Assembly: GCA_964522405.1 (NCBI GenBank)
Contig: CAZFTR010000001.1
Coordinates: 4,602 to 68,601 of the forward strand
Length of the DNA: 64,000 bases
Reading direction: 5' to 3'
From: an uncultured Gammaproteobacteria bacterium
Lineage (GTDB): Bacteria; Patescibacteriota; Patescibacteriia; Magasanikbacterales; UBA922
Every line of letters begins with the position of its first letter. Position 1 is the first letter of the stretch. A program made the translations under genes and the position numbers. Shown here one piece after another: positions 107 through 62,372 of this stretch. The notes beneath the pieces were generated by a model. The model was not told the DNA's origin. It made no database searches and saw nothing but the letters and a program-made list of their open reading frames with translations.

Positions 107-178
107 TGGGTCTGCAAGGAATCGAACCTTGATCTAAAGCTTAGAAGGCTTCTATTCTATCCGTTGAACTACAGACCC
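107..178 (-). tRNA. tRNA-Arg (anticodon TCT)
   Basis: The reverse complement GGGTCTGTAGTTCAACGGATAGAATAGAAGCCTTCTAAGCTTTAGATCAAGGTTCGATTCCTTGCAGACCCA folds as a cloverleaf: 7-bp acceptor stem GGGTCTG/CAGACCC, T-arm CAAGG-TTCGATT-CCTTG, anticodon loop CTTCTAA. CCA is not encoded. Confidence 0.8.
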
Positions 179-218: not shown

Positions 219-1217
219 TCAATCCTGTTGACGATTTTTTCCATGAAATTTTTTATGTATATTTTTTAGTTCTCGGTCAGTAATGTGGGTATATATTTGG
301 GTAGTGGTGATAGAGGAGTGGCCAAGCATGCTCTGCACACTTCGAATATCTGCGCCATTCTGGAGTAAATCTGTCGCATATGAATGTCTAAGTGTGTGTG
401 GAGTTACTGGTTTTGTAATTCCAGCCATTTTTGCATATTTTTGCACACTTCTTTGAACAGATCTGGGAGTAAGCGGTATATCTTCTACAGGTTTTCCAGT
501 CTTGCCACTTACTGTCTTCTGTTTTCCGGTTCTTTTGTCATGAGAAATGAATAAATAGGGATTGATATCATATCTGGCTTCTAAATATTTCTTTATCCAA
601 TATCTGGCTTGCTCTGAAAGGAAGACAATTCTGCTTTTACCACCCTTTCCTCTTATAGTAAATTCTTCTTTTTTGAGGTTTATATCAGTTATTTTTAGCT
701 TAACTAGCTCTGACACACGAAGTCCGGCTGAAAAAAGTAATTCCAAGATTGCTTTGTCTCTAAGTGATATTAATTGCTTAGCAGAGGCTTTTTTCTTTTT
801 TTCAATTCCGGGGATTCCTTGAATCGGAGCTTCCATAAGTCTATCTAAGTCAGTTCCTTCCAGAAAACTAACTTCTCGATCTGGCATTTTCATAAGTTCT
901 ATTTTTTCCGGAGCCAAAGTCTCTACATCCCTTTTGGCTAGATATTTTAAAAATGATCTAACAGCTATAAGATGGTAATTTTGAGTATTTTTTTTGAGAG
1001 GGTCTCCATGAACATCAATAAGTCTATTGAGCCAAAGTCGATATTTACGTACTTTTTCTGCAGTTATAGCACTTGGTTTTTTATTTTCGCCAAGCCATTC
1101 AAGAAATCTGCTTAAATAAAAATGATAATTTTGTATAGTCCTATCACTACGATTTTTTTCAATTTCCAGGTATTCAAGAAATTCTTTTAAATAAATTTTC
1201 AGATTTTTTTCTGGCAT
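219..1217 (-). CDS. tyrosine site-specific recombinase, XerC/XerD-like
   Basis: The C-terminal catalytic region HTLRHSYATDLLQNGADIRSVQSMLGHSSITTTQIYTHI gives the R..H..R..Y signature of phage-integrase/Xer recombinases. The N-terminus has a SAM-like core-binding domain. Confidence 0.85.
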   Translation of the reverse strand: MPEKNLKIYLKEFLEYLEIEKNRSDRTIQNYHFYLSRFLEWLGENKKPSAITAEKVRKYRLWLNRLIDVHGDPLKKNTQNYHLIAVRSFLKYLAKRDVETLAPEKIELMKMPDREVSFLEGTDLDRLMEAPIQGIPGIEKKKKASAKQLISLRDKAILELLFSAGLRVSELVKLKITDINLKKEEFTIRGKGGKSRIVFLSEQARYWIKKYLEARYDINPYLFISHDKRTGKQKTVSGKTGKPVEDIPLTPRSVQRSVQKYAKMAGITKPVTPHTLRHSYATDLLQNGADIRSVQSMLGHSSITTTQIYTHITDRELKNIHKKFHGKNRQQD

Positions 1218-1413: not shown

Positions 1414-4400
1414 ATGAATAGGCTTGAAAAGAAAACAAAGCCATTTTTGCATATCAGTGCATTTCTAACTGCTGCAGCATTTGTGGTTGCCTTTGCTTTT
1501 CTTTTTTCTGATCTTCATGCAGTAACTAAGACTTGGGATTTTGATAGTGCTTCAGATTATACCTTTGATGCAGATTATCTAAAAATAACAGATGGAAAAG
1601 CAGGGTTTGTGACATTTGATCAAACAGACGATGATAATACTCAAACAGGTTTTGGTGGTGGTACACACACAGGTACAGGCTGGAGTGCCAGTAATAACAG
1701 TCTGGGTATAGTTACCGGTACAGTTGCTCTTTATTGGAAATTTGATGAGGTAAGCGGAAATTTAGTCACTGATTCGTCCGGTAGTGGTATGAATGGAGGC
1801 TTGAATCAAAGTGATGGTTTTGATAATAACTGGGTTTTAGGAAAGTTTGCTAATGCTTTTGAATTTGCTAGCTCAACAAGTGAATCATTTGTAGCGCCAA
1901 CCTTTAATACTAAGCCAAATAGCGAACTGTATACCTCTGATATTTTTAGCGTTGCGCTTTGGGTTAGGTTAGATGAGTTGGTTGATAATAATTTTATTGA
2001 TTTATTTCATCGTATCAGCGGTGGAATTTCACGTTTGTACATGAGAGTCCAACCTACTCATAAAATAAGTTGGTCCATATGGGATGGAAGTCCGAATTGG
2101 AGTGGTTTGGTGGGGAATACTACTATTGAAATTGATAATTGGTACTATGTTGTTGGTACATATGATGGGGAAAATTTAAAGCTCTATATTAATGGTGAAT
2201 TAGATGGTTCAATGGCTAATTCCAATGGGATTGAGCAGTTTGATGGTAATAGAATCGCTGGTATAGCAACTATTACAGGAGGTCCTTATGGCGCAACTCA
2301 ACATTTGGATGGAATAGTTGATGATGTTCAATATTATTCTCGCGCCCTAAGCACAGAAGAAATATTGCATAATTACATCAACAGGCCCCCAGCCCAGCAA
2401 GGAATATTTGAATCACGTGTCATGAACAATTACGCAGCATCTTACTGGTGGTCATTAGCATGGAATCCAAAAGCTCCATATGGCAAAGAATTGCCAGATA
2501 ATCCACGTATGGGATTATTGATGCATTTTGATGAGGCAAGCGGAAGTACTGATTTTATCGATTCTTCAAGCGGTGGTAATTTAATATCATGTTCTGGCAC
2601 TTCTTGTCCGCTAACCGGCATAGCAAGTCAGCTTAGTACAGGCGCATATTTTGATGGAGTAGATGACAAGCTGGTTTTTAGTAATAGTCCTACATATAAT
2701 GCTGATGAAATCAAAGATTTTTCATTTAGTACATGGGTAAAGTCTGATTTGAGTCAGAATGGTTTTCATGTTATTGCTTCCGGAGGTTTATCTGATAACT
2801 CTGGCTGGAGTGTCTATACTTACAAAACTGCAAGTGGTGCTGAAAACGTGTATTTTGAAATAGCAAGACCTGGATATACAACTCAATACAAGATACGCGG
2901 TGTCAGTACACAAGATGATAGGTTTGTTTTTATTGGAGGTACCTATGATGCTAGTACTGATGAACTCATTATTTACAAAAATGGTAGTGGAATCGTTGGT
3001 TATGATTCAGCTGGAGCATTAACACAGGCACCTGGAGATGTTTTTGAAATTGGACAAAGAGCACTGCATTCCGGTTTTTCGGATTTTCCCTTCAGAGGTG
3101 TTATAGATGAATTTACGATTTACAATAAAAAGCTTTCAGATCAAGAGATGAGAAATCTATTTGTAGCCCAAAGACAAGGGGCTGCCATGTTGGACGACAA
3201 TGCACCTGATCGAGCTTTAGTGCTTCATATGAATGAAGCAGGAGGTAGTTCGGCGTTTAAAGACAAATCATCTTATAATAATAGCGCCTCTTGTTCTGGT
3301 AATACATGTCCTGTAGCGGGTGTAGAAGGACAAGTTGGCACAGCTTTGAAGTTTGATGGCGTTGATGATTATGTAGAGATAAGTGGTAGTAGTTTAGAAA
3401 TTTCTGATAAATTAACAATGGGTCTCTGGGTAAAACCGGAAACTAGCGGCTCGCATAAACAATTGATAAGTAAGAATCCGGCACCTGGCTCAGTGTCAAG
3501 TTATTATTTGTCATTAACAGCGCTAAAACCATGTGTTTGGCTTGGTCAAAACATGGTGGGTTGGAAATGTTCCATTAGTGCCGTACCTCTTAATGAATGG
3601 TCGTATGTTGCTGCAGTATTTGATGGTAGAAGTTTGAGAATTTATATCAATGGTGTTTTGGACAAAACATATAGTGGTCTAAGTGGTGTTATACCTACAA
3701 ACCCGGGTACATCAGTATGGCTTGGAAATAGACCTGATCTTTCCGGATATATGTATAAAGGTGGAATGGATGAAATAACCATATTCAGCAAAGCACTTTC
3801 CGCAGAAAAAATTTTAAATATATATAATGAACAAAAAATAGGAAAATTGGGATTGGAAAATATTGCCAGCGATCGCTCATTGGAAACAGCACAATACAGT
3901 GCAAGTGGAGCTAACATGACAGATAACGAATTATTATTGCATTTTAATGAAGCTTCATACAGTGGAACAGTAGATGAAGTTGTAGATAAATCAGGAAATG
4001 AGAATCACGGATTAGTGGTTGGAGGAGGCGATACTGTTGCCTATGGAAAATTAAATAGAGCAGCAAGTTTTGATGGAGTTGATGATAGTGTAACCATTGC
4101 TGATAACAATACCCTGGACACCAAGGAATCTGATTTAAGTATCGAAGCATGGATTAAACCGGAAAACGTTTCACAGGCCGGATATATCGTAACAAAACGT
4201 CTAAATGAATCTCCATGGACACAATGGGGCGTGGGAATATTTGATGGTAGTACTAATTATGGTTCAGGAAAGAAATTAGTCTGTACTTTCGGTTTAACCT
4301 CAGGTAGTGGTAGTTATTTTCATGATGTGGTGACAGTTGATGATATATTAGATGGGGATTGGCATCATGTAGTTTGTCGTGTTGATTATGGTAATAACAT

Positions 4401-7400
4401 AGAAGTATTTGTAGATGGTGTAAAAGTGGATACAAACATTATAAGAGATCAGAGTTGGACATCTCTTGAAAATGATGAACCAATTACAGTGGGTTCTGGG
4501 AATGGCGCCTTTTATTACAAGGGTTTAATTGATGAAGTTGCTGTCTATAGTCGTGCTTTATTGGATGAAGAAGTCCTAGATAGATACAAACGTGGGGCTG
4601 TTCGTGTTAAGTATCAAATTCGCTCATGCAATGACAGTGCTTGTGACGGTGAAACATATATGGGGCCGGATGGAACAGCAAGTACATATTATTCAGAATT
4701 ACAAAATAGTTTTTATTCAACTCCGGCCATAGGGCTTGCGAGTGTTCCGAATAATACGTACTTTCAGTATAAGGCAATATTTGAAACAGAAAACGCTTCA
4801 TATTTACCAGAAATATCATCAGTAACAGCAGGCCCAGATCATCAATCAATTGGTACATTTGAATTGATGCCAGCTAAGGCGTCAGCAGTATCATTTGCAA
4901 ATATAGACAGCTTCACAGATCAGGATGTTGGATTGATTACCGGTATAAATGATCCAGTGCCATACTACCAAATAACAAACCAAGGTGATCAAGAAATGCC
5001 TTCTTGGTATTTTTGGAATGGTTCAAGCTGGGCACAAACTTTTAACCCGGATGATTCCAATACTGAGTCAGAAATAAATACAAACATATCACAATTTTCA
5101 ACAGACATTGGAACTGGAAAATTCCTTTGGAAAGCATTTTTAAAAGTTATAGAAGCAGCAAAGAGTCTCAAGTTGTTCCAAGTAGAAGTAGATTACAATG
5201 CGCCTCCTACAGCTAATGTACTTGAAACAAAAGGGTCAGCAGTATATTTTGATGGGGAGAATGATTATATAACAATTCCTGATTCAGAAGGTTTTAATTT
5301 TGCAGGAAAGACGGCAAGTGTAGCCTTTTGGTTTAAGGTGCCTAATATTGAAATAATAAATCACATGATTGATCGTCAGGAGGGTGGATATCCTGGAGCA
5401 GGTTGGTATATAGGAATAAGACCAAATGGTAGATTGCACATAAATCATAGAGCCACAGATGACACTATTAATCTTTACTCAACAGCTCTTGTCAACGATA
5501 ATCAATGGCATTTCGGAGTGATAACCATTGATTCAGCTGATAATTTAGCAACAATGTATGTGGATGGAGTATTAAACTCAACCGATACCTTTGAGGGATT
5601 GATAGATAAAAATGATTCTTTCTTTATTGGTACTACTGGTGGTGGAAATTCGTCATATTATTTTAAAGGTTCAGTAGATGAAATAGCTTTTTATAATTAC
5701 AGTCTTACTCAGGAAGAAATAGACTTGTATTACAATTCAGGTAATGGCAGACGCGGTTTAGCTTCGGACAATGGATTAATTTCTGGTTGGAATTTTGACG
5801 AAGGAGCTGGAGATACCGCAAAAGACTATGGAATAAATGCCAATAATGGAGAATTATACAATGGCGCAACTTGGGTTCCAGGAAAGATTTCAGAGACAAC
5901 AAATATGTATGGTCCATATCCATATTTTTCAAGTATCTTTAATGATACCAAAGATAGTTATAAATCAGCACTTAGTTTTGATGGTGGCGGAGGATATGTT
6001 GAACTGGGAAAGAAGTTAGACGAAGAAAATATTACGGTTTTAGCTTGGATAAAGCTGGATGAACATAATTATTTTAATTATATAACCAGTAATTCCAGAG
6101 ATTGTTGTGCTAAATACGATGGGGATGAACTTAAGGTCAATGAAGGTGGTAGGCTTAGTGGTAGGATTTGGAATAATGATCCTGCAATTAGTGATTGGAA
6201 TTTAGTTAATGCAAAACTTGTTTCAAATCAGGTTTTAGCACTAGATACTTGGTACCAAGTAGCCTTTACATATGATGGCTCAACCATGGCTCTTTATGTG
6301 AATGGTGAACTTGATAATACTAAGGCCTCTACTCTCGGTATTGGTCAACCGTCTTCGTTTAATAGAACAATTGGAGCGATGGCAATGAGTCCGCATAATT
6401 ATAATTTTAGAGGTGATCTAGATGAGGTATCAATTTATGATCGTGCTCTTACAGCAGAAGAAATAGCAACTCATTATAACGGCGGTAATGGAAGATATGG
6501 TTTGGCAACAGATAGTGGATTAATAGGAGGTTGGCATTTTTATGAAGGTGCTGGAAATGCTGTGCAAGATTATAGTCCATACGGCAATCATGGAACAATA
6601 AAAAATAGTCTAGAATGGACCACAGGAGTTGTAAATGATCATGATTACGCCAACAAAGCTCGCATCCAAGTAAGTACAGATCCAAATTTTGAAAATATTA
6701 CTCACTGGGATTCAGGAGTTGAAGGTACAACACTTCCAAATTTTGTAGTTGCTTCTGAAAGATCAAAAGATATCAAATATGGCTCTCTTGGAAATGGTCC
6801 AATAATAGATTCGTTTAGTATGGCTGATGGGGACATTACCTATTATTGGCGTATAAAGTATTGGGATCATCATGGAGCAGAGGGAATATGGTCAGCTACA
6901 AGCAGTTTTACTATGCTTGACGCACCGGTTGCTCCTGGATCTGTTTCTGCTGCTAGAGTGTCAGACAATGAATTTACAGTTGGTTGGCAAGATCTTTCAA
7001 CTACAGAAGATAAATTTGTTTTAGAAAGAGACTACACACTCGGCGCTGGTGGATTTATGGGTTGGCAAAAGCTTACGGATTTAGCTCCAAACATAACCAA
7101 TTATACAGATAGTTCTACAGAAGTTGATTCAAAATACAAATATCGAGTAAAGGCAGTAAACCAAGCAGGTGAGTCAATTTATACAGAAGATCCGATAGAG
7201 CATTTCACCTCACCAAAGGCGCCTACCAGTGTAAGCTCAACCTATGATGGAGAAAATGCATTTACTGTTTCTTTTACTGATACTTCAGCAATTTCAAATA
7301 TACACGATGTAGAGAGATGTGATGATCAGATTTGTGACAATAATATCTATATGGCTGTAAGTGGTTCACCTGTTTCCACCTCGACTTTTCAAGATGCAGG

Positions 7401-10400
7401 TCTTGCTACAAACGCCAGATATAGATGGAGAGTACGTGCCTCTCTTGATCCAACTTCAGAATTGACTTCAGAATATGCCTATTCAAATTATGAGTTTAGT
7501 AAACCGCTTGCTCCAAGTAATTTTGCTTCAGAATTTGTAAGTGATAATCAGATTAATCTATCTTGGACAGATGATGTGCAATATGAGAGTGGATTTACAA
7601 TTTATGTTTCCGAGGATGGTAGTGAATATACTCCGATAACAATTGGAAACTCAACAACTACTGTTTCTCAAAATACTACAAATTATAGTTATGCTGATTC
7701 ATCCACAAATCATTCCTATAGTTTTAAGGCAAAATCATATATTGATGCTACAGCCAGTAACTCCGAGTTATTTTCAGATGATTCAGACATGACAGAAGTA
7801 ATTTATACATCACCTGTTGCGCCAACAATGTTAGCAGCAGTACCACTGAATTCAAGTAATATTCAATGGAATTTTACAGATAATTCAAATTATGAATTCG
7901 GGTATAAATTATTTACTGATGGGGGAGGAGAGATATTAAATTCAGAAAATGCAAATCTTGGCTCAATAGTTGAATCTGGCCTTTCTCCAAATACTGAATA
8001 TTCTCGTTATGTAACAACTTACAACAATTCAGGTTCTGCTTCTAGTGCAGTTACTTCAACTTATACAATCTCTGCAACTCCTTCAAACGGTCGTTCAATT
8101 TTCACATCTCAGACAGCTATAACAGTTGCCTGGGATGCAAATGGTAATCCTGATGGAACAGAATACTATATTGTCAATTCAAATACAGGTGCAAATTCCG
8201 GATGGGTAACAAAGCAAGAATTTGAGTTTAGTGATTTTAAATGTGGAAACAGTTATACTTTTGAAATAAAATCAAGAAACGCTCTAAGTCTCGAATCAAA
8301 TAATCATTCACTATCAATAAAAACAGATAATTGTTATGGTGGAGGAAGTCCAGCTACCCCACCTCCGGCATTGCCACCACCTCCAGAACCACCTAAGCCT
8401 GGAGATTTCAGCCTGGTTATAAATGAAGGTGAGCTGATTACAAACAATCTCACGGTAGTGCTTGCTATTGATGGAGGAGAAGATGCTATTATGATGGCTA
8501 TTTCAGAAGATGAAGGTTTTTTCGATACTTCTCAGATTCCATACAGTGAAGCATATGCTTTCCCATTATCAGAAGAAAATGGGACTAAGGTAGTTTATAT
8601 AAAGTTTTTTACAGAAGATGGAACTGAATCCCCAGTTATTTCTTCTGAAATTATTCTTGACACAGAAGCTCCGGAAATAATTGATCTAGAAATAGAAGAT
8701 GAATTTGAATTTGATCAAAATGTAATTGTAAAGGGAACTTCAGAAGCAGGAGCAAATATAATCCCAACTTTAAATAGTTCTCAAAAAACTGCAATTGAAA
8801 TTGATCAAGATGGAAATTGGGAAATTGATTTTGGTATTTTGGATTCAGGTGAATATATACTTGAACTGGTGACTAGAGATGGAGCTGGAAATGAGGGAGA
8901 TACTTATCTAGTTGCTTTTGTAGTTAATGAGGAGCCTATTGAAGAAGAGTCACAACCGCCGTCAGGAACAGCGACCACAACACCTGCGACAACTACCACT
9001 ACTCCGGAAGATGGCGAGGGCGGAGGATTGCCAGATCTTATAGACGAAGTTACAGACGTTATAGAAGATGTTCAGGATGCTGTGGACGAAACATATGAGG
9101 ATATAAAAGAAATAGTCAAAGAAATAATTCCATTGCCAGGACCACAAACAGGAGGTGAGTCTATAATTCCAACAGTGACCACCCAGAGCGGAAGTGAATT
9201 ATTAGGAGATGGACTATTGAGCTTTGGTTCAATAGGTCTGCCAAAAACATTTACAAATCTGGTTACCAGTTTCCCAACACTTGAAAAGACTTTTAGAGAT
9301 TTTGGAGTGAGAAATATAGCAGATCTTCATAGATTGCAGGGTGTAACTCTTGCTCTACCAACTATTGATGAACTTGTACCGGCTGATTCACTTGCTAAGT
9401 CAGCATTGGTTTTAGATACGCTTGAGGGATATACTATTGATGATTTAAGAGACGCTGCAGAAAAATTACCAACAGATGTAGTATTTTTTGAACTCAACAA
9501 TGGAAAGATTGCGCTTGCTCCGGTTGTAAATGGGGCATCATTTAGTGGAGAGGGTCCGACATTTAGAACTATACCAAATCAGGCTGTAAGCATGATTATA
9601 AGACCTTCAGAACCAGTTGAAACAATTACTTCACAGGTTGCGCTTAGAGAGCTTAGAACTAGGCAAGTTGCAGAAGCTCAAAAGAAAACAACCATACAAT
9701 CAGTAATTGATGCATTTGGGGAGACTGTCTCTGCTGTTCAGGTAAATGAAGTATCAGCAGCAGAAATAAAGGATCAAGATTTGGAAAGTACTCCTCAAGA
9801 TGAAAAAGGAAGATTTATTGTTGATCAAGTTGATTTTGAAGATTCAAATGATGATGGGGTTTATGTGGCAGATATAAATACTCCAGAAGTTTTTGGAAGT
9901 TTTGATATTATTACTGATGTTGATTATTCAACTCAGAAGAAGGACAATATCATTACCAATACCATGCTAATTGATCCTGAAGGTTATGTCTTTCACCAGA
10001 CAATTTCCGGAGAGGTTAGATTGGCAAATGCTAAAGTATCACTCTATCATTTTAGTGAAGAGTCTAGTGAATTTGAGCTTTGGGATGCAGAAAAATATGG
10101 ACAGGTAAATCCGCAGATTACAGATGATTCAGGAACTTATGCATTTTTAGTACCAGAAGGTCAGTATTATATTTCCGCACTTGCATCAACCTATAAACCA
10201 TATCAGTCACGAGGATTTACAGTACAGTCAAGTGGAAGAGGGGTACATATAAATATTGGACTTCAAAAATACTTTGATGTTGAACAATTCCTAAATATTG
10301 ATTATATAATTGTTACCATATTGATTGTCCTTTTAATACTTATGGTAAGAAGACTATTCAAAGGGATTAGAAAAATGAAAAAATACGATGATTATAATTA

Positions 10401-10401
10401 A
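1414..10401 (+). CDS. giant (2995 aa) cell-surface protein with an N-terminal signal/TM, six or more LamG (concanavalin-A-like, Laminin_G_3) repeats, several fibronectin-III-like domains, Pro-rich and Thr-rich linkers, and a C-terminal TM anchor
   Basis: Recurrent LamG motifs (L[KR][LI]Y[IV]NG..D) run with ALSFDGVDD...W.K and DE..IY.RALS..EI blocks at about aa 255, 520, 740, 975, 1380 and 1625. FN3-like SWTD/VGWQD segments lie at about aa 1850-2300. Linkers are PATPPPALPPPPEPPKPG and TATTTPATTTTTPEDGEGGG. The C-terminal hydrophobic helix IIVTILIVLLILMV is followed by RRLFKGIRKMKK. Confidence 0.8.
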   Translation: MNRLEKKTKPFLHISAFLTAAAFVVAFAFLFSDLHAVTKTWDFDSASDYTFDADYLKITDGKAGFVTFDQTDDDNTQTGFGGGTHTGTGWSASNNSLGIVTGTVALYWKFDEVSGNLVTDSSGSGMNGGLNQSDGFDNNWVLGKFANAFEFASSTSESFVAPTFNTKPNSELYTSDIFSVALWVRLDELVDNNFIDLFHRISGGISRLYMRVQPTHKISWSIWDGSPNWSGLVGNTTIEIDNWYYVVGTYDGENLKLYINGELDGSMANSNGIEQFDGNRIAGIATITGGPYGATQHLDGIVDDVQYYSRALSTEEILHNYINRPPAQQGIFESRVMNNYAASYWWSLAWNPKAPYGKELPDNPRMGLLMHFDEASGSTDFIDSSSGGNLISCSGTSCPLTGIASQLSTGAYFDGVDDKLVFSNSPTYNADEIKDFSFSTWVKSDLSQNGFHVIASGGLSDNSGWSVYTYKTASGAENVYFEIARPGYTTQYKIRGVSTQDDRFVFIGGTYDASTDELIIYKNGSGIVGYDSAGALTQAPGDVFEIGQRALHSGFSDFPFRGVIDEFTIYNKKLSDQEMRNLFVAQRQGAAMLDDNAPDRALVLHMNEAGGSSAFKDKSSYNNSASCSGNTCPVAGVEGQVGTALKFDGVDDYVEISGSSLEISDKLTMGLWVKPETSGSHKQLISKNPAPGSVSSYYLSLTALKPCVWLGQNMVGWKCSISAVPLNEWSYVAAVFDGRSLRIYINGVLDKTYSGLSGVIPTNPGTSVWLGNRPDLSGYMYKGGMDEITIFSKALSAEKILNIYNEQKIGKLGLENIASDRSLETAQYSASGANMTDNELLLHFNEASYSGTVDEVVDKSGNENHGLVVGGGDTVAYGKLNRAASFDGVDDSVTIADNNTLDTKESDLSIEAWIKPENVSQAGYIVTKRLNESPWTQWGVGIFDGSTNYGSGKKLVCTFGLTSGSGSYFHDVVTVDDILDGDWHHVVCRVDYGNNIEVFVDGVKVDTNIIRDQSWTSLENDEPITVGSGNGAFYYKGLIDEVAVYSRALLDEEVLDRYKRGAVRVKYQIRSCNDSACDGETYMGPDGTASTYYSELQNSFYSTPAIGLASVPNNTYFQYKAIFETENASYLPEISSVTAGPDHQSIGTFELMPAKASAVSFANIDSFTDQDVGLITGINDPVPYYQITNQGDQEMPSWYFWNGSSWAQTFNPDDSNTESEINTNISQFSTDIGTGKFLWKAFLKVIEAAKSLKLFQVEVDYNAPPTANVLETKGSAVYFDGENDYITIPDSEGFNFAGKTASVAFWFKVPNIEIINHMIDRQEGGYPGAGWYIGIRPNGRLHINHRATDDTINLYSTALVNDNQWHFGVITIDSADNLATMYVDGVLNSTDTFEGLIDKNDSFFIGTTGGGNSSYYFKGSVDEIAFYNYSLTQEEIDLYYNSGNGRRGLASDNGLISGWNFDEGAGDTAKDYGINANNGELYNGATWVPGKISETTNMYGPYPYFSSIFNDTKDSYKSALSFDGGGGYVELGKKLDEENITVLAWIKLDEHNYFNYITSNSRDCCAKYDGDELKVNEGGRLSGRIWNNDPAISDWNLVNAKLVSNQVLALDTWYQVAFTYDGSTMALYVNGELDNTKASTLGIGQPSSFNRTIGAMAMSPHNYNFRGDLDEVSIYDRALTAEEIATHYNGGNGRYGLATDSGLIGGWHFYEGAGNAVQDYSPYGNHGTIKNSLEWTTGVVNDHDYANKARIQVSTDPNFENITHWDSGVEGTTLPNFVVASERSKDIKYGSLGNGPIIDSFSMADGDITYYWRIKYWDHHGAEGIWSATSSFTMLDAPVAPGSVSAARVSDNEFTVGWQDLSTTEDKFVLERDYTLGAGGFMGWQKLTDLAPNITNYTDSSTEVDSKYKYRVKAVNQAGESIYTEDPIEHFTSPKAPTSVSSTYDGENAFTVSFTDTSAISNIHDVERCDDQICDNNIYMAVSGSPVSTSTFQDAGLATNARYRWRVRASLDPTSELTSEYAYSNYEFSKPLAPSNFASEFVSDNQINLSWTDDVQYESGFTIYVSEDGSEYTPITIGNSTTTVSQNTTNYSYADSSTNHSYSFKAKSYIDATASNSELFSDDSDMTEVIYTSPVAPTMLAAVPLNSSNIQWNFTDNSNYEFGYKLFTDGGGEILNSENANLGSIVESGLSPNTEYSRYVTTYNNSGSASSAVTSTYTISATPSNGRSIFTSQTAITVAWDANGNPDGTEYYIVNSNTGANSGWVTKQEFEFSDFKCGNSYTFEIKSRNALSLESNNHSLSIKTDNCYGGGSPATPPPALPPPPEPPKPGDFSLVINEGELITNNLTVVLAIDGGEDAIMMAISEDEGFFDTSQIPYSEAYAFPLSEENGTKVVYIKFFTEDGTESPVISSEIILDTEAPEIIDLEIEDEFEFDQNVIVKGTSEAGANIIPTLNSSQKTAIEIDQDGNWEIDFGILDSGEYILELVTRDGAGNEGDTYLVAFVVNEEPIEEESQPPSGTATTTPATTTTTPEDGEGGGLPDLIDEVTDVIEDVQDAVDETYEDIKEIVKEIIPLPGPQTGGESIIPTVTTQSGSELLGDGLLSFGSIGLPKTFTNLVTSFPTLEKTFRDFGVRNIADLHRLQGVTLALPTIDELVPADSLAKSALVLDTLEGYTIDDLRDAAEKLPTDVVFFELNNGKIALAPVVNGASFSGEGPTFRTIPNQAVSMIIRPSEPVETITSQVALRELRTRQVAEAQKKTTIQSVIDAFGETVSAVQVNEVSAAEIKDQDLESTPQDEKGRFIVDQVDFEDSNDDGVYVADINTPEVFGSFDIITDVDYSTQKKDNIITNTMLIDPEGYVFHQTISGEVRLANAKVSLYHFSEESSEFELWDAEKYGQVNPQITDDSGTYAFLVPEGQYYISALASTYKPYQSRGFTVQSSGRGVHINIGLQKYFDVEQFLNIDYIIVTILIVLLILMVRRLFKGIRKMKKYDDYN

Positions 10402-10826: not shown

Positions 10827-10900
10827 TTTTCTAAAAAAATTATAAACAGTCGCATTTCAAATGTGACTTTTTTGCTTTTAAAAACTATTACTTAAAAATT

Positions 10901-10972
10901 GCTTCGCCGTCCTCGCCTCTCTTGCTAATCTGCTTTCAGCATTAGCAAGGAGTCTGCGGATTGTCTCATCAA
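10901..10972 (+). repeat. copy 1 of a ~70-nt conserved intergenic element (candidate structured-RNA motif). The other copies are at 36644-36712 and 62304-62372
   Basis: Conserved 5' flank gcttcgccgtcctcgcc, a hairpin with stem CTTGCTAAT/ATTAGCAAG and constant loop CTGCTTTCAGC, and conserved 3' flank ctgcggattgtctcatc. Confidence 0.6.
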
Positions 10973-11039
10973 TCTTTAAGTAATACTTTTTAAAAGCAAA
11001 AATAAACTATATCTTGACCCAGCACCATAAGCCAGAGGG

Positions 11040-19329: not shown

Positions 19330-19441
19330 ATTGTAAATGCTTGTCTCGCCCAAAGGATGGGATCCCGTCCAGTGAAAATTGGCGGGAAAAGGCTTAAAAA
19401 GCCTGAGAGATGACAGCGCTGTTATCCATAGTCTCCATTGT

Positions 19442-19520
19442 CGCCCATTCCACGTTCGCCGACAAGGGACTAAGAACAGGCGGCGCGCGAGCACCAGCCA
19501 GGCGCGTGTTGATTTACCAG
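19442..19520. repeat. GC-rich 79-nt perfect direct repeat, copy 1
   Basis: Sequence cgcccattccacgttcgccgacaagggactaagaacaggcggcgcgcgagcaccagccaggcgcgtgttgatttaccag is identical to 19875-19953. It is about 60% GC in an AT-rich context. Confidence 0.9.
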
Positions 19521-20209
19521 CCACCACCTTTGTTGTCTCTGCGGTTGGCGATGTGACCTGACAACGCCAGAGGCCAGACGATCCAGGCGATGAGAGCCGG
19601 GAAGCTCAGAACTTCCTCCCTCGGCATGGGGTTCCGCCTCGACTTTTCCATGCCCAGGTCTTTGGCGATGTAGATCAGGGCGAAAATGCCCAAGAACAGG
19701 TATCCGGCCAGGATACTGAGAGCAATCAAATCACTGGTGCTCAAAACCTTTCCTCCTTTCGCGGTTTTGCAATGTTGATTATAACAGTAAATAATTTTTT
19801 TTTCTATGGTTGGTTTCCAAATAAAAACCCTCCTTTTTAAGGGGGTAATAATGGTTAAAATAGTTCCCTTTCGCCGCCCATTCCACGTTCGCCGACAAGG
19901 GACTAAGAACAGGCGGCGCGCGAGCACCAGCCAGGCGCGTGTTGATTTACCAGTCTCCTTTTTTTTCTTCTTTTCGTCTCTGATCTCGATCAGGTAGCCG
20001 GCCAACATGAAGGGGCCTGCCATCAGCCCGAAGAGCCAGATCATGACACCGAATTTACTGGTGTCGGTGGGATTTCTTTCTTCTTCGCCCTTGCCGTGGT
20101 CACCGGTGACGTACAAGAGGGCGCCGAAGCTGAGGATGGCGTAGCCCCCGACCAGGCTGAGAATCATCAGGGCAGTGCTCAAAGTTCTCTCCTTGTTGCG
20201 ATTTTGCAA
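19514..20209 (-). CDS. GC-rich tandem pair of paralogous small two-TM membrane protein ORFs (A ~19955-20194, B ~19514-19754), fused in one frame through an A8 tract
   Basis: The halves LSTALMILSLVGGYAILSFGALLYVTG... and LSTSDLIALSILAGYLFLGIFALIYIA... are clearly homologous. Each is preceded by a conserved leader, atcaaYattgcaaaaYcgc, then AAGGAG, then TTG. Half B stops at the TAA inside the 79-nt repeat (cTGGTAAatc). Half A is out of frame by one base within an A8 run (19959-19966) and reads through. Confidence 0.4.
   Translation of the reverse strand: MQNRNKERTLSTALMILSLVGGYAILSFGALLYVTGDHGKGEEERNPTDTSKFGVMIWLFGLMAGPFMLAGYLIEIRDEKKKKKETGKSTRAWLVLARRLFLVPCRRTWNGRRKGTILTIITPLKRRVFIWKPTIEKKIIYCYNQHCKTAKGGKVLSTSDLIALSILAGYLFLGIFALIYIAKDLGMEKSRRNPMPREEVLSFPALIAWIVWPLALSGHIANRRDNKGGGW
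19875..19953. repeat. GC-rich 79-nt perfect direct repeat, copy 2
   Basis: Exact 79/79 match to 19442-19520. It is followed on the minus strand by a terminator-like hairpin, ccccctTAAAAaggaggg plus a T-run (19822-19846). Confidence 0.9.
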
Positions 20210-20325
20210 TATTGATTCTAGCAGGAAATAAAATTATTGTCTACTTTGCTTATAAAGAAAAAAGCCTCACCCTAGAAAAGGCGAGGCATAGTTTTTACTA
20301 TTGTTCACTGTTTATTGATCATTGC

Positions 20326-21297
20326 TTACTGTTCAGGCTCCCAAAGATTAATATATTCAATAGCACTAAGCGCAGCAGTCGCACCTTGCCCAGCAGAAAT
20401 ACTAATTTGTTTAAAAGGAATATTAGTCACGTCTCCGGCAGCGAAAAGTCCAGTACAATTTGTTTTGCAGCGAATATCTACTTCTATTTCTTTTGCTTTG
20501 TTTTTACTGGCACATTCTACAAATCCGGAATTTGGGATCATGCCAATGTGGACCATGACACCATTTATTCCATCAACTTGTTTTTCTTCTTCTGATCCAT
20601 TTTCTTGGTATTTAATACCAGTTACCATTTCATTGCCAAGTATTTCAGAAGTAAAACTATTGTAAATTATTTCTACATTTGATTTTTCTTTTACTTTGTC
20701 TACTAAAATTGTTTCACCTTTTGGAAAGCCTCCTAGATTGGACTCTGGATACTTGGTAACTAGATAAACTTTTTCAGCAATTTCTGCCATCATTAGAGCA
20801 GATTCGAGAGCTGCATTTCCTGCTCCAATAGTTGCTGTTGTTTTTCCTTTGTAGAGTGGTCCGTCACAAACCGTACAAAAAGTCACGCCTTTGTTTTTGT
20901 ATTCATTTTCTCCGGGAATTTTCAGTTCTCTAGGGTGAATGCCACTGGCAACTATCACAGCTTTGGTCTGGTATTCTTTTTTTTCACCGGAAAAATTTTC
21001 TGCGTGAACTACATGGTAGTTTTTTACTTGTTCAATTGATTTTACTTCAAAGCCATTATCAAATTGCACTCCATAGGAAAGAGCATGCTTGTGGAAATTT
21101 TGGGAAAGTTCAATTCCAGAAATAGTTTCAGTTCCAGGCCAGTTCTCTACAACTCCAGACAAAGCAACTTCACCACCAATGTCTTTGCTGACCACCACAA
21201 AATTCAATTTTCTGCGAGCAGCATAAATTGCAGCAGTACAACCTGCAGCTGCAGCTCCGATGATCACTAGATCAAGCATTTTTTCTTGATTTTCCAT
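20326..21297 (-). CDS. trxB: thioredoxin-disulfide reductase
   Basis: FAD-binding motif VIIGAAAAGCTAAIYAARR, redox-active CTVCDG (CxxC), and a second dinucleotide-binding motif. Confidence 0.85.
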   Translation of the reverse strand: MENQEKMLDLVIIGAAAAGCTAAIYAARRKLNFVVVSKDIGGEVALSGVVENWPGTETISGIELSQNFHKHALSYGVQFDNGFEVKSIEQVKNYHVVHAENFSGEKKEYQTKAVIVASGIHPRELKIPGENEYKNKGVTFCTVCDGPLYKGKTTATIGAGNAALESALMMAEIAEKVYLVTKYPESNLGGFPKGETILVDKVKEKSNVEIIYNSFTSEILGNEMVTGIKYQENGSEEEKQVDGINGVMVHIGMIPNSGFVECASKNKAKEIEVDIRCKTNCTGLFAAGDVTNIPFKQISISAGQGATAALSAIEYINLWEPEQ

Positions 21298-22014: not shown

Positions 22015-22456
22015 GTTCTGCTACTTTGCCAAGTCTGCGTATATGTCGCTCATCACCACTAAATTCAGTTTCAAGCCATTTTTTGACCATTGCCAGGTGG
22101 TGATCTTCGCTTCCGAGTTTGGCTGCAAGGCAAAGCACATTAGTATTGTCATCTAGAACCATAGTCTCTGCAGCAGATAGATTATATCCAATTCCAGCCC
22201 GCACACCATTTACTTTGTTTGCAGCAATACAGACACCAACTCCATTTTTACAGATTAGAATTCCTCGTCCATTAGTTTCAGCGACTTTTTGAGCTAGCGG
22301 AATTGCATAATCCGGATAATCATCTGTTTCAATGTATTCAAAAGGGCCTAAATCTTCAATTTCAAGTTTGAGTTCGTTTTCAAGATAGCGAATAATCCGT
22401 TTTTTTAGTTGATATCCTCCATGATCTGATCCTATAAATAGCTTTCCTTGGTACAT
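22004..22456 (-). CDS. rpiB: ribose-5-phosphate isomerase B
   Basis: GSDHGGYQLK and ...CKNGVGVCIAANK match RpiB/LacAB. Confidence 0.85.
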   Translation of the reverse strand: MYQGKLFIGSDHGGYQLKKRIIRYLENELKLEIEDLGPFEYIETDDYPDYAIPLAQKVAETNGRGILICKNGVGVCIAANKVNGVRAGIGYNLSAAETMVLDDNTNVLCLAAKLGSEDHHLAMVKKWLETEFSGDERHIRRLGKVAELEK

Positions 22457-22591
22457 AATATATTGTTTATATTTAACTAGAAAAAATACTGTGATTATAT
22501 TGTAGCATAGAGATAGTTTGTGATAAAGGGAGTTTATGATTAGGTGAAATTGTGTTATAGTTTAACCAATATCGACTACATGGGGAGATGT

Positions 22592-22756
22592 ATGGTTTCC
22601 AGGTTGGGAAAGGAGCCGGTGGTGCTGGTCAAGGTTGTCTGGGGCGGGCTCAGCCCGGAGGATATTGCGGTTTACCGTCAAATCGCTAGGGACACAGTGG
22701 AGCGTTCCAAGCAAAATCGCTGCCATGGATGCGGCAGACCAAAGAAGGGGGAATGA
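22592..22756 (+). CDS. GC-rich small ORF (54 aa), possibly the product of a ~260-nt GC-rich transcript; could instead be a non-coding RNA
   Basis: A TG-extended -10 (tgtTATAGT) near 22545-22556, SD GGGGAGA 5 nt before ATG 22592, and an intrinsic terminator at 22795-22822. The protein MVSRLGKEPVVLVKVVWGGLSPEDIAVYRQIARDTVERSKQNRCHGCGRPKKGE has no recognised family. Confidence 0.35.
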   Translation: MVSRLGKEPVVLVKVVWGGLSPEDIAVYRQIARDTVERSKQNRCHGCGRPKKGE

Positions 22757-22794
22757 TGGGGGGCGCCACTCCATCTCGGATTGGCAAACTCGAA

Positions 22795-22822
22795 AAAACA
22801 TGAGAGAATCATGTTTTTTTGA
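22795..22822 (+). terminator. intrinsic terminator
   Basis: aaaaaaCATGAgagaaTCATGttttttt. Confidence 0.65.
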
Positions 22823-22843
22823 TATTAAATTTATCAAAACAAA

Positions 22844-22868
22844 AAAACAGCTTTTGCTGTTTTTCAGT
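22844..22868. terminator. bidirectional intrinsic terminator, likely ending the convergent minus-strand GC-rich gene
   Basis: aaaaaaacAGCttttGCTgttttt. Confidence 0.55.
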
Positions 22869-22959
22869 ACTTCCTAAAAATTCAAAAAAAATACTAAGGA
22901 AGGGGTGGGGCGGAAGGAATCACGGCGGGAGTCGCTGCGATCATCGCCCCGAGGGGGGA

Positions 22960-23631
22960 CTAGGCATCGATGGCCTCGAAGATCTGGGATCTGGGGCGGT
23001 CGGGGAGGGCGCGGGGCATGGCGTCGAGGGTCGTCATGTCCGCGTACCAGGCCTGCATGTAGCCGGTGGGACGGTGTTGGTCAGCGCTCGGCGCCGAGGC
23101 CTGGGCTCGGCTCTGGAGCAGGACGGCATTGAGCCGTTCCGGGTCGTTCTGGAACATCCAGAGCAGGAACTTCATCTGAAGCGCCTCCTCCTGGCTCATC
23201 TGGGGGATCTGGCCCGGACTGACCTTGGAGATCCGCTGACCCATGGTACGGAACAGGCCGTCGGCAGCCCTCAGCGCGGCCAGACGGTGCATCATGTTCT
23301 GGTTGTCCGGTTCCACCACTTGACTGCTCTCTTCGAGCGAAGCCCGCACCTTTTCCGGAATCTCTTCGCCGGCGGTTTCGTTGCCAGTGAAGATCAGGCG
23401 GTAGCGTGTCCGTTGACCCACGGGGATCTCGAGAATCAGTGCCAGCGGCGGGTTTTGGGCGATGGTGTACTCCAGGTAACACTCGATCATGTTTTCCGGA
23501 TCCTTGACTCCGGAGTCAGGGGGCTTGCTGTCTTCGTACGACTTCATGGCATTGTGCCAGTGCCAGAGAGTCAAGAAGAAGCCCAGGATCAGGACTGTGA
23601 TGAGGAGAGTCAGGAGGGTGAGAGAGTCCAT
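22960..23631 (-). CDS. GC-rich hypothetical protein with an N-terminal TM anchor (224 aa)
   Basis: Start MDSLTLLTLLITVLILGFFLTLW is preceded by AAGGAGG. Amino-acid composition is protein-like, whereas the overlapping plus-strand ORFs are G/R/L-rich antisense artefacts. About 58% GC. Confidence 0.55.
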   Translation of the reverse strand: MDSLTLLTLLITVLILGFFLTLWHWHNAMKSYEDSKPPDSGVKDPENMIECYLEYTIAQNPPLALILEIPVGQRTRYRLIFTGNETAGEEIPEKVRASLEESSQVVEPDNQNMMHRLAALRAADGLFRTMGQRISKVSPGQIPQMSQEEALQMKFLLWMFQNDPERLNAVLLQSRAQASAPSADQHRPTGYMQAWYADMTTLDAMPRALPDRPRSQIFEAIDA

Positions 23632-23759
23632 ATCGTGCCTCCTTGAGGCTTCCGGTTCTAGTCTGTTCAGTATTGTTGTCTTTTTTTGATAAAAAGTCAA
23701 GTCTGGAGTTTAGATTGACAAAACAACAATTTTGTCCTAATATGGGTATACAATTATAA

Positions 23760-27149: not shown

Positions 27150-27176
27150 AAAAACACCCGAATCGGGTGTTTTTTA
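27150..27176 (+). terminator. intrinsic terminator after ileS
   Basis: aaaaaaCACCCGaatCGGGTGtttttt. Confidence 0.8.
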
Positions 27177-27679
27177 AATGGTGGTTTTTATGATCGCGCC
27201 ACACCGGAATTCACAATAGTTTATAAAATCCGGTGTGGCGGCGCGATCAAGTGTCTGTTCACGAGGTTGTTGTCCCTCGTTTACCAGAATCAATCCACCA
27301 CCTCTCCCTTATTTACTACTAACGCTCTTCTGGCGCTTTCGTTTTATTCTCGATAGGGAGCTGTTCTAATCGCGTTGCACGATCAGTCTAACGGGTACAG
27401 CCATGAACGGCTTCACGAACAGGCTGTTCGTATCGATCCAAACTGTTCCTGCATTGCACAGAAAACGACTGGTTTCGCGCTTTTTTGTGTGCGCGTGCTT
27501 CAGTCTCAGAATGATCGGAGTGGGTTCTTGCCGGGGTAGGTGCTACAGTCAATATATCTTGCCTTGGAATGAAGTCGAACCGGGCTTCAATCTTTGGTTT
27601 GATACTCGTGTAGAGCCTTATTCAGTCGTTCGGGTGACTGTCACACGTAGTAGGATCAGATCCTCTACGGTGCTGGTAG

Positions 27680-28141
27680 CTATCGCTTGCCGTACTTTTT
27701 ACGCAGGCTGCGACGCTCGATTTCGCGCTCCAGGAGATCCACCGCTTTTTTGGCTTCCTTGAGCCACCAGTGGCGGATGTCATGGATGTTGCCTTCTTTC
27801 AGGCACTTCCAGAGGAGCCAGAGCCAGTACTGGGTACCGTCTTCTTCGCCGTAGATCAGCGTTTCGAACGGTTCGGGGAGGTTGAAGCCCCCGTCCTTGT
27901 GCTCGGTCATCTCGAATCCCTTGTCGCCATTCTCAACTGCTGCGGCGACCAGGTCGACGAGTCTGTCCTCTCTGCGGTAGAGCTGTCTCTCCTCGCGCAT
28001 GACAGCGAGGAAATCAGTCCAGTCCTCCATGTACGCGGGGACGTAACTGAGGAACTGCTCACTCATCTCACCCACCCAGTGCTCGTGCCTATCAGCAACG
28101 AATTCCGTGTAGGAGAGATCCAAAAACTCTCTTCTATCCAT
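27680..28141 (-). CDS. GC-rich hypothetical protein (153 aa)
   Basis: Protein-like, Trp-rich acidic sequence. SD GGAG lies 7 nt before the ATG, and the 5' leader has a GC hairpin CCCCGGC-acggg-GCCGGGG at 28162-28180. About 57% GC. Confidence 0.55.
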   Translation of the reverse strand: MDRREFLDLSYTEFVADRHEHWVGEMSEQFLSYVPAYMEDWTDFLAVMREERQLYRREDRLVDLVAAAVENGDKGFEMTEHKDGGFNLPEPFETLIYGEEDGTQYWLWLLWKCLKEGNIHDIRHWWLKEAKKAVDLLEREIERRSLRKKYGKR

Positions 28142-28569
28142 CTAACACTCCGAAGCTACTGCCCCGGCCCCGTGCCGGGGAGCTCCGAGATCTCTCTCGG
28201 TTATATCTAGCAAATTTTGCAAAATATAATCGAGAGAGATTTTTGAGTTTTAAATGTCAGCTTTCAAATTATACAAACGAATTATATAATTTGGAACTGT
28301 CCCGAGGCTGAAGCTTCGGGTGAGTTTCTGGCGCTGTTGCGACCTGAGTCGCGAGGCGCAGTTGGTCTTGCTCTTAGAGTGTTGGGGGAGCTGATTGACC
28401 CTACCCCTTCTACTGATTTCGAACTTGTCGCACAGCCGGTTTTCTGGCTCTCTACCTACTCAATTGCCAACTCGTGGCATCCACATCTAGATTTCCCCGA
28501 AAGTTCAGAGAAACTCTCGGTCCACAGGAGCGGAGTTAAATCCGCATCTTCATCGATTAGAAATCGATG

Positions 28570-28872
28570 CTACTTGCTTCCCTCCTGGTGTTTCACCAGA
28601 CGTCGATGGACTTTCTCATCGGCGTAGTCCAGCTCGAGTCGGAGCATCGCGTCCTCGAAGGAGCTCAGCGCTTTCTCGACGCTGTCCGGCGTCGTCGTCT
28701 CGGTGGTGGTGATCGACTGGGAGATCGGATCGGCCCATGCATGGAGGATGCGCGTGGCACGTTTTCCGTACTTGTGGCGCGCGCCTTCGGGCATGTTGCG
28801 CATGACAGAGGTCAGTCGGTTCTCGAGCGCCTCGAGACGGACCTGGAAAAGATATTGCTCGCTTTTCTTCAT
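28570..28872 (-). CDS. GC-rich hypothetical protein (~100 aa; start ATG 28872 chosen by analogy to its paralogous leader, alternative GTG at 28893)
   Basis: A leader paralogous to the 153-aa gene: hairpin CCCTGGt-aaagg-GCCAGGG, then gcagtRgcttYggag, then 7-9 nt, then ATG. Confidence 0.45.
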   Translation of the reverse strand: MKKSEQYLFQVRLEALENRLTSVMRNMPEGARHKYGKRATRILHAWADPISQSITTTETTTPDSVEKALSSFEDAMLRLELDYADEKVHRRLVKHQEGSK

Positions 28873-29111
28873 CTTTCTTTTCTCCAAAGCCACTGCCCTG
28901 GCCCTTTACCAGGGAGCCCAAGAGATTTCCCTTGGTTAAGCGAAAAAAGCAGATAACCGCTTAAATTAGGCAAAAGCCTAAATTTTCGCTAAATCAAGGG
29001 AAATTTCAGTGAATTGTCAATAACGGCTAACAATTAATTATAGCAGGTTTTGACGGTTTTGTCAATGAGTGGTAAAATTAGATAACGACTTCAAAAATTA
29101 ACTAAAAAATT

Positions 29112-36582: not shown

Positions 36583-36643
36583 ATATGTTTTTATATTTAT
36601 TTCTTCTTTGGTTATAATTTTAGAGTATATTTTATTAAACTAG

Positions 36644-36712
36644 CTTCGCCGTCCTCGCCTCTCTTGTTGATTTGCTTTCAGCATCAACAAGGTGGCTGTG
36701 GATTGTCTCATC
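36644..36712 (+). repeat. copy 2 of the ~70-nt conserved intergenic element
   Basis: gcttcgccgtcctcgcctct-CTTGTTGAT-ttgctttcagc-ATCAACAAG-gtggctgtggattgtctcatc. The stem carries compensatory changes relative to copy 1. Confidence 0.6.
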
Positions 36713-36805
36713 TACTTTAATAAAATATACTCTAAAATTATAACAACTGATTTCAATAAAAAGGGATCTTATTAGAATCATCCCGCCTATATTGTAGTTT
36801 GTAAA

Positions 36806-45966: not shown

Positions 45967-46093
45967 GGTAGTTTTTGTAAAGCAAAAAACACCCCAAACC
46001 AGGGGTGTTTTTTAATGAGTGAGAAAGTTGTAAACAGATTTGAAATTGAGATTTGTTTCTAGCTTTTTGACAAAAAAAGGAGGTGGCTAGATT

Positions 46094-47086: not shown

Positions 47087-47199
47087 AGGAGGGGCGGGAG
47101 TGTGAAGGCGCTCCCGGTTCCCAAAATTATTTTATATATTTAAAGTAATTTAGGAATTTAAAAGTTGACAAAATATTTGAGATAATGTAATCTCAATAT

Positions 47200-62259: not shown

Positions 62260-62303
62260 ATGTTGTTTTGACTTTTTGCGTTTGATTTTTTCTCTAAATC
62301 CTC

Positions 62304-62372
62304 CTTCGCCGTCCTCGGTTCTATTGTTGATCTGCTTTCAGCATCAACAATGTGCCTGCGGATTGTCTCATG
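62304..62372 (+). repeat. copy 3 of the ~70-nt conserved intergenic element
   Basis: ttcgccgtcctcggttct-ATTGTTGAT-ctgctttcagc-ATCAACAAT-gtgcctgcggattgtctcatg. The stem is again kept by compensatory changes. TGACTTTTTGC lies upstream, as in copy 1. Confidence 0.6.

Follow-up and report, generated by a model that had tools for sequence, protein, structure and literature searches.

Why are two stretches of DNA that lie 354 nt apart (433 nt from start to start) identical in every one of their 79 positions, while the homologous sequences on both sides of them have diverged? This direct repeat lies in a window of 64,000 nucleotides, the whole stretch of DNA analysed here, and a first-pass annotation had read its identity as a sign of very recent duplication, of gene conversion or of a functional constraint such as a recombination site or a structured RNA. 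The identity itself was confirmed and lies far above chance: the block (Table 1) matches at 79 of 79 positions, and a search of the window at up to 3 mismatches returns only the two copies, compared with none in 100 dinucleotide shuffles. The bases bordering the block differ on either side (T at 19441 versus C at 19874, and C at 19521 versus T at 19954), so that the exact repeat is 79 nt long; if weaker similarity is counted in, the match becomes 94 nt long, with 94.7% identity. The GC content of the block is 63%, compared with about 35% for the window. On the minus strand either copy begins with CTGGTAAATC, as had been described. A third or diverged copy was found by nhmmer neither in the 64-kb window nor in any locus fetched.

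Two tandem cassettes that end in the same block

The two block copies are not free-standing elements. They are the 3' ends of two cassettes, A and B, and comprise the last tryptophan codon and the stop codon, followed by the beginning of the untranslated trailer. Both cassettes lie in tandem on the minus strand and follow the same layout, in which an extended -10 promoter-like site is followed by a strong ribosome binding site, a TTG start, an ORF with about 76 codons, then the block and finally a hairpin (Table 1). The promoter-like sites of the two cassettes are homologous to each other, and the ORF products share 32% amino acid identity, a common MST start, two hydrophobic helices, an RNP loop motif and a basic tail. 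Identity between the ORFs is 0.41, 0.61 and 0.40 at the first, second and third codon positions, with the third positions near saturation, and GC3 in the proposed frames (0.79 for ORF A and 0.75 for ORF B) stands against 0.23-0.27 in seven host genes (0.24). This pattern over the codon positions, together with GC3, indicates that ORF A and ORF B are genuine genes of foreign composition that were duplicated long ago.

The terminator-like hairpin that had been noticed after copy 2 is real and carries a T-run; it is predicted to end the transcript of cassette A. The hairpin of cassette B is unrelated to it and was not flagged by the terminator scan, so transcription of cassette B may continue into the PMT gene.

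We found no relatives of these sequences. Homologues of ORF A and ORF B were detected neither by a word-index protein search nor in viral loci, comparison with Pfam, PHROGs and NCBIfam gave no match (toxin families included), and an HMM profile searched against 1.84 billion representative proteins returned only the read-through ORF of the window itself. Pieces of the block had no homologue in viral contigs, GTDB genomes or JGI metagenomes, and the block had no match in phage and plasmid records. A 21-mer of the block gave ten chance matches in contigs of 61-75% GC, none of which extended.

Table 1. Features of the two-cassette locus and its neighbours, in window coordinates
Feature	Position	Strand	Description
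Block copy 1	19442..19520	-	3' end of cassette B: in-frame TGG 19519-19517, TAA 19516-19514, then 72 nt of 3'UTR
Block copy 2	19875..19953	-	3' end of cassette A: TGG 19952-19950, TAA 19949-19947 (-1 frame of ORF A), then 72 nt of 3'UTR
Promoter-like site, cassette A	20215..20243	-	TAGACA-17-TAGAAT, TG before the -10 hexamer; then RBS AAGGAG
Promoter-like site, cassette B	19778..19806	-	TAGAAA-17-TATAAT, TG before the -10 hexamer; then RBS AGGAGG
ORF A	19947..20182	-	TTG start at 20182; two hydrophobic helices, Lys-rich tail; GC3 0.79
ORF B	19514..19744	-	TTG start at 19744; 76 aa; ends ...NKGGGW-TAA; GC3 0.75; paralogue of ORF A
A8 tract	19959-19966	-	holds the in-frame heptamer A_AAA_AAG (19964-19958), four bases 5' of the block
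Terminator-like hairpin, cassette A	19818..19843	-	CCCTTAAAAAGGAGGG + T-run, 31 nt past block copy 2; hairpin at 19843-19828
Weak hairpin, cassette B	19386..19404	-	AGGCTTTTTAAGCCT + TTTT after block copy 1 (hairpin 19404-19390); unflagged by the terminator scan
Promoter-like site, weak	19767..19795	+	TTGCAA-17-AATAAT, 9/12 matches
Two-cassette GC-rich insert (~0.9 kb)	19340..20250	-	between the trxB terminator and the PMT_2 start
Thioredoxin-reductase-like gene (trxB)	20326-21297	-	own terminator at 20287-20264
PMT_2 glycosyltransferase gene	ATG at 19329	-	

A GC-rich insert between trxB and PMT_2

Do related genomes carry the cassettes at this position? By its trxB homologues, the organism falls among Candidatus Magasanikbacteria-like CPR bacteria, and the gene order rpiB-rpe-trxB-PMT-small protein-pfkB is conserved in related genomes. 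In one relative, whose trxB is 67% identical (L003), the trxB stop lies 52 nt from the PMT start and the insert is absent; in a second (L004) the insert is likewise absent and an AT-rich gap of about 0.5 kb separates the two genes. A third relative (L029, 76% identical) holds 4.3 kb in the same gap, with three blocks of 55-72% GC that contain unrelated orphan ORFs. From these genome comparisons, the cassette pair is an insert specific to its lineage, and the trxB-PMT gap is a hotspot into which GC-rich cassettes have come repeatedly. The cassette island showed no similarity to islands of the relatives or to further GC-rich islands in the window, and a search of the literature on GC-rich islands in Magasanikbacteria returned nothing relevant.

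Probable gene conversion between old paralogues

An alignment of the two cassettes places the block within a longer region of homology, which includes the promoter and reaches some 20 nt past the block. Along this region the identity is 73% in the promoter and 5'UTR, 46% at the nucleotide level in the ORF, 79 of 79 in the block and 40% in the next 25 nt, beyond which it is random. The C-terminus just 5' of the block reads KGDW in ORF A (in the -1 frame) and GGGW in ORF B, and the 3' flank aligns as GGGCG-ACAATGGAGA versus GGGCG-GCGAAAGGGA. Homologous but diverged flanks on both sides mean that the block belongs to the duplicated unit itself and was not inserted into it. A very recent duplication of the unit, one of the causes proposed earlier, is excluded by ORFs that are only 46% identical and saturated at third codon positions. 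Base-by-base constraint is an unlikely source of the identity as well, considering that 79 of 79 matching positions stand beside flanks of 40% and 46%.

Among the causes offered by the first-pass annotation gene conversion fits best, and it is the explanation towards which we lean: the block is probably a conversion tract, that is, a patch of one old paralogue that was recently copied onto the other or has been kept homogenised. Most likely, the perfect identity reflects recent conversion or continuing homogenisation, and not recent duplication, mobile insertion or constraint on each base. An ancient duplication gave rise to the tandem small-membrane-protein cassettes, which are strongly diverged everywhere outside the block. 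In the scheme proposed, one cassette would later have overwritten the 3' end of the other by homologous conversion, with a tract beginning at the tryptophan and stop codons. The tract might halt at the stop codon either because the diverged, paralogue-specific coding region offers no identity for pairing or because selection opposes its spread. A stretch that has once become identical would stay a good substrate for further conversion.

Conversion is an ordinary process. Besides the identity profile, the age of the two ORFs and the diverged but homologous flanks, it is supported by the findings that only two copies of the block exist in all collections searched, that no structure was found that would require 79 invariant bases and that a second assembly also contains the repeat. 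Other observations speak against it. One is the complementarity of the block to both translation-initiation regions at -33 kcal/mol, which 0.8-3.6% of shuffles equal. A first conversion event usually needs 25-30 nt of identity to start, and the flanks of the block are too diverged to provide this. Furthermore, the 5' edge of the identity lies no more than 4 nt from the stop codon; a neutral tract has no reason to end at a stop codon, which hints at a functional boundary. A sister species with the cassette was not found in the collections searched, and for this reason comparison cannot separate conversion from strong constraint.

By analogy, the locus is most like concerted evolution between tandem paralogues. 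Stretches of perfect identity inside two gene copies of one genome are likewise seen in the conversion tracts of tufA and tufB in Salmonella and E. coli, where one gene copy is overwritten by the other via homologous copying. The tract described here differs from these in that it is only 79 nt long and covers a stop codon and 3'UTR instead of coding region; moreover, unlike in tufA/tufB, the rest of the paralogues is near-saturated, and there are no orthologues to show the pattern within versus between genomes. As a textbook type of partial homogenisation of tandem paralogues, the block would be of little weight by itself. Deletions, too, can arise between direct repeats of this sort, and the block can mediate the loss of one cassette.

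We are dealing with a real repeat that has an ordinary probable cause and an unusual and poorly sampled genomic setting. This setting is more interesting than the block: species-specific orphan genes with a GC3 of 0.75-0.8, each with an AT-rich promoter module, sit in a Magasanikbacteria-like lineage in recurrent gaps between conserved genes with a GC3 of 0.24.

A possible shared 3'UTR module

Could the two blocks be identical because both mRNAs must match one and the same partner? The block would then be a functional RNA module of the 3'UTR. We regard this possibility as unlikely, with only a minor part of our confidence, and yet as the main rival to gene conversion. Two versions of the partner can be envisaged. 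In the first, it would be the translation-initiation regions of the mRNAs themselves, with a fold-back that hides the Shine-Dalgarno (SD) sequence and the start codon, as in the hok or aapA1 type I toxin mRNAs. In the second, it would be a single antisense RNA transcribed from the plus strand between the cassettes.

The arrangement of the locus is consistent with a module. The block lies between stop codon and terminator and would be transcribed along with the ORF, its identity begins exactly at the stop codon, and the cassettes are arranged in tandem, encode small hydrophobic proteins and have separate promoters. Each of the two initiation regions is predicted to form a duplex with the block (-33.4 and -33.0 kcal/mol; shuffle p of 0.008 and 0.036), and these duplexes include an 11-bp pairing UGAGCACCAGU:GCUGGUGCUCG over the start of ORF B and ACAAGG:CCUUGU at the SD of ORF A. 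The minimum free energy fold of the modelled mRNA A pairs the start region with the block; that of mRNA B, however, leaves the block unpaired to the start region. About 2% of the GC-matched 40-mers in the window pair equally well with the block, and the pairing test was made only after the match had been noticed. The complementarity of the block to both translation-start regions is only weakly significant (p about 0.02).

A structured RNA, which had been suggested as one functional constraint, is not borne out by the folding of both orientations. The block has fold z-scores of -0.5 (minus strand) and -0.3 (plus strand), values that are ordinary for its composition; by itself it is not unusually stable, which speaks against a regulatory module. 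Over both strands, with and without sequence context, the z-scores range from -0.3 to -1.9 and point to no convincing structure. Rfam matched only one tRNA in the whole window at gathering thresholds, and at E-values up to 10 it gave only chance matches outside the block in the locus. We also found no homologues of the cassettes from which covariation could be read.

The second version of the partner finds a candidate source in the weak plus-strand promoter-like site, which faces block copy 2 and which, speculatively and if real, would yield an RNA antisense to the terminator and the block of cassette A. Against it, neither a plus-strand terminator near either block nor a plus-strand promoter before copy 1 was found.

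The locus resembles multi-copy type I toxin-antitoxin repeats in its layout. Tandem cassettes of about 0.4-0.5 kb with a promoter, a small hydrophobic ORF and an untranslated conserved segment are likewise found in LDR (Ldr/Rdl), hok/sok, aapA/isoA and par (fst; DRa/DRb), and there, too, the mRNA ends can pair with the translation-initiation region, a pairing that is only weakly significant here. Type I toxins are usually shorter than 60 aa and have one transmembrane helix. In contrast, the proteins of the two cassettes have 76-79 aa, two hydrophobic helices, a charged loop and tail and no similarity to toxin families. Of the antisense gene that belongs to type I systems there is here one weak promoter-like site on the plus strand (9 of 12 matches), with no plus-strand terminator found near the blocks. 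If the block were a regulatory module, it would offer a first handle on the control of foreign cassettes in CPR bacteria.

A bolder combination of these elements can be drawn up, which we consider rather improbable. Here, the block would be the shared RNA module of a two-gene, type-I-toxin-like system of CPR bacteria, either with one 3'UTR sequence complementary to both SD/start regions or as the target, in both copies, of a single antisense RNA made from the plus-strand promoter between the cassettes; in either case the two copies would be obliged to remain identical. The heptamer A_AAA_AAG would in addition serve as a dnaX-like recoding site or phase switch, by which ORF A would either stop at the TAA of the block or continue into ORF B.

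The block also bears a likeness to REP elements, whose hairpins just past stop codons lower the translation of the upstream gene. The block likewise has a G+C-rich hairpin (CGCGC...GCGCG) in a repeated extragenic sequence, beginning 7 nt past the TAA. Unlike REP, the block belongs to no dispersed family of many copies, nor is it built as an imperfect palindrome.

Stop codons and the A8 tract of ORF A

Does the block supply the stop codons of both ORFs, as had been claimed? For ORF B this holds: the ORF ends in GGC TGG TAA, of which TGG TAA are positions 2-7 of the block, in frame. For ORF A it does not, since the TAA lies in the -1 frame. The zero frame of ORF A reads GAG ACT GGT AAA at the block and meets no stop over 72 codons; it crosses the block, the terminator and the promoter and ribosome binding site of cassette B before it joins ORF B in frame. 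The chance of an open zero frame across the AT-rich spacer is not extreme (shuffle p of about 0.02). In the GenBank/NCBI annotation this read-through of ORF A appears as a single 217-aa protein (P0001).

A slip of -1 or one extra A in the A8 tract would give an ORF A ending in ...KKKKKKGDW-TAA. By inference, the TAA of the block terminated the ancestral ORF A (...KGDW-stop, like ...GGGW-stop in ORF B) and that the present A-tract probably carries a one-base frameshift. The same A8 tract is present in a Logan contig (L001, from SRR8146441) that is 100% identical to window positions 25030-19924 (5107 nt); this contig may share reads with the deposited MAG, and it is therefore a second assembly and not necessarily a second sample. 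Block and A8 frameshift together would have misled the annotation into the call of a 217-aa fusion protein.

Alternatively, the frame could be used rather than broken: A_AAA_AAG would be a dnaX-like site of programmed -1 frameshifting, stimulated by the block downstream of it, and would yield either a short ORF A (...KKKKKKGDW) or a zero-frame fusion of A, linker and B. Such a role is very improbable in our view. It would draw on a slippery heptamer that is in frame with the TTG at 20182 and 4 nt ahead of the block, on a -1 frame that ends three codons on at the TAA of the block, on the 72 open codons in frame with ORF B (p of about 0.02 for the open frame alone) and on the annotation of the fusion as one protein in GenBank. 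However, ORF B carries the block without a slippery site, and frameshifting thus provides no explanation for the block that the two cassettes share. The spacing is unfavourable too. Stimulators of dnaX-type frameshifts lie 5-9 nt downstream of the heptamer, whereas the first stable hairpin of the block begins 18 nt past it. A terminator and a promoter lie within the supposed fusion, and a plain A9-to-A8 mutation or a homopolymer error explains the same data.

Recombination sites and mobile elements

Is the block the footprint of a mobile element or of a site-specific recombination system (att, attC or MITE-like), by which the 433-bp unit was inserted as a cassette? Identical direct repeats around a segment do look like attL/attR or a target duplication, and the region as a whole was inserted at a hotspot where relatives carry other GC-rich cassettes. 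Nevertheless, this origin is highly unlikely and largely refuted. The flanks are homologous between the units on either side of the block, so that the whole cassette must have been duplicated, which contradicts a mobile insertion. Terminal inverted repeats and a hairpin from end to end are absent from the block, each cassette has its own promoter-like site, and no further copy was found in any collection searched. There is no integrase nearby: the sole tyrosine recombinase, an XerC/D-like gene at 219-1217 beside a tRNA, lies 18 kb from the block, and a scan of the neighbouring genes showed neither an integron integrase nor a transposase nor a reverse transcriptase. The recombination site that the first-pass annotation had entertained therefore has neither the inverted termini nor the attC-like hairpin nor a recombinase gene closer than 18 kb, and the block is internal to a duplicated unit.

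In integrons, the attC repeats are about 60-130 nt long and highly similar. Near-identical repeats after successive small ORFs of foreign composition, at a hotspot, are likewise seen in integron cassettes such as those with Vibrio cholerae repeats. Here, in contrast, there are two copies and paralogous cassettes with their own promoters, without attC hairpin, core sites or integrase. The closest candidates for attC core sites are AATCAAC near the 5' end and GTGGAAT near the 3' end, each with one mismatch to the motifs RYYYAAC and GTTRRRY and mutually complementary at 5 of 7 positions. An attC site was rejected, with neither motif present in full, the ends unpaired on either strand and no inverted repeat reported in the block. 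An integron cassette was rejected as well: the neighbours are trxB and PMT_2, IntI is missing and the cassettes carry their own promoter-like sites.

Other classes of repeats were considered and set aside. A dispersed repeat (REP, MITE, RPE or Correia-like) does not agree with two copies in 64 kb that stand in homologous contexts and have no inverted termini. Diversity-generating retroelements have TR/VR repeats of about 100 nt that differ at adenines, with the VR in the 3' coding end of the target gene and a reverse transcriptase nearby; the copies here are identical without adenine-specific differences, 72 of their 79 nt follow the stop codon, and no reverse transcriptase was seen among the neighbouring genes scanned. 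A CRISPR-like reading fails on the sequence features.

The repeat in the assembly

That the repeat is an assembly duplication artefact is very unlikely. The window does come from a metagenome-assembled contig, and L001, with its 100% identity over 5.1 kb, may be built from the same reads. However, what lies between the copies is no duplicated stretch: it is a separate paralogue, diverged and under a promoter of its own, and ordinary reads are longer than a 79-nt repeat. Moreover, L001 ends exactly 30 nt inside the block, which is k-1 for k = 31, as expected of a true repeat with two different continuations. The block thus breaks short-k assemblies.

GC-rich islands between conserved genes

Several islands of orphan genes, with a GC3 of 0.57-0.79 in an AT-rich genome (host GC3 about 0.24), are placed in the gaps separating conserved genes (see table). 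In both the IleRS|rpiB and the trxB|PMT gap the GC-rich content differs from relative to relative, and the gaps are empty in some of them (L027, L003). The GCS2-like island gene has homologues at other positions in two further CPR contigs (L040, L041), and there too their GC lies above that of the surroundings.

Promoters and leaders of the island genes

In L029, a related locus with trxB and the PMT_2 glycosyltransferase (PMT) gene, two copies of an 84-nt AT-rich module (74% identical to each other), holding a near-consensus minus-strand promoter (TTGACA-17-TATACT), each lie upstream of a GC-rich ORF; these two ORFs, of 173 aa and 384 aa, are unrelated. A standard promoter module seems to come with cassettes of this lineage, and likewise with the tandem minus-strand cassettes A and B of the window.

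In the window, we also found homologous structured 5'UTRs before both ORFs of island 27150-28950 (GC-rich, 107 aa and 153 aa, without obvious relationship to each other). Both UTRs share the order hairpin, GCTCCC..GGGGCAGT.GCTT.GGAG and ATG, the hairpin being either CCAAGGGAAATCTCTTGG or CCGAGAGAGATCTCGG, and show compensatory differences. Each ORF is followed 3' by 230-530 nt of GC-rich non-coding DNA with hairpins throughout.

An open frame from ORF A to ORF B

The zero frame of ORF A (19514-20209, minus strand) contains no stop in the 79-nt repeat block, in the terminator hairpin or in promoter B with its RBS. It runs in frame into ORF B, and GenBank annotates this read-through as a protein of 217 aa. 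By shuffling, p is about 0.02 for this frame staying open alone. The frame may be open by chance, following a frameshift from A9 to A8; alternatively, it may serve as a phase or recoding switch, or A and B may really be fused.

Further features of the window

A structured intergenic element recurs three times at a spacing of about 25.7 kb. Its core of about 68 nt (CTTCGCCGTCCTCGCC...GGATTGTCTCAT) is near-invariant among the copies and contains an inner hairpin with compensatory changes, while the enclosing AT-rich stem of about 30 bp has a different sequence in each copy and is self-complementary in all, with double changes in 21 of the 54 predicted pairs. A comparison with Rfam returned no real match, only microRNA-like chance matches far under the gathering scores. 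It has the appearance of an unclassified ncRNA, or else of a small element residing inside hairpins.

Close to the window start, an XerC/D-type tyrosine recombinase gene directly adjoins a tRNA gene. This could be a housekeeping xer gene, or the pair could mark one edge of an integrated element.

Coordinates of the features in the window and in loci of relatives
Feature	Sequence	Position	Strand	Remark
tRNA gene	window	107-178	minus	70.8 bits
XerC/D-type tyrosine recombinase gene	window	219-1217	minus
Large ORF	window	1414-10401		2995 aa; next after recombinase gene
Structured element, copy 1	window	10869-11002		intergenic
Structured element, copy 2	window	36611-36744		intergenic
Structured element, copy 3	window	62271-62404		intergenic
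Structured 5'UTRs	window	28938-28880; 28205-28145	minus	homologous
GC-rich islands	window	19340-20250; 22400-23700; 27150-28950; 46000-47200
GCS2-like gene	window	46094-47086		island gene
GC-rich island	L029	3200-6400
GC-rich island	L003	1-5400
GC-rich island	L004	1200-5700
84-nt module	L029	4874-4957; 6514-6597		two copies
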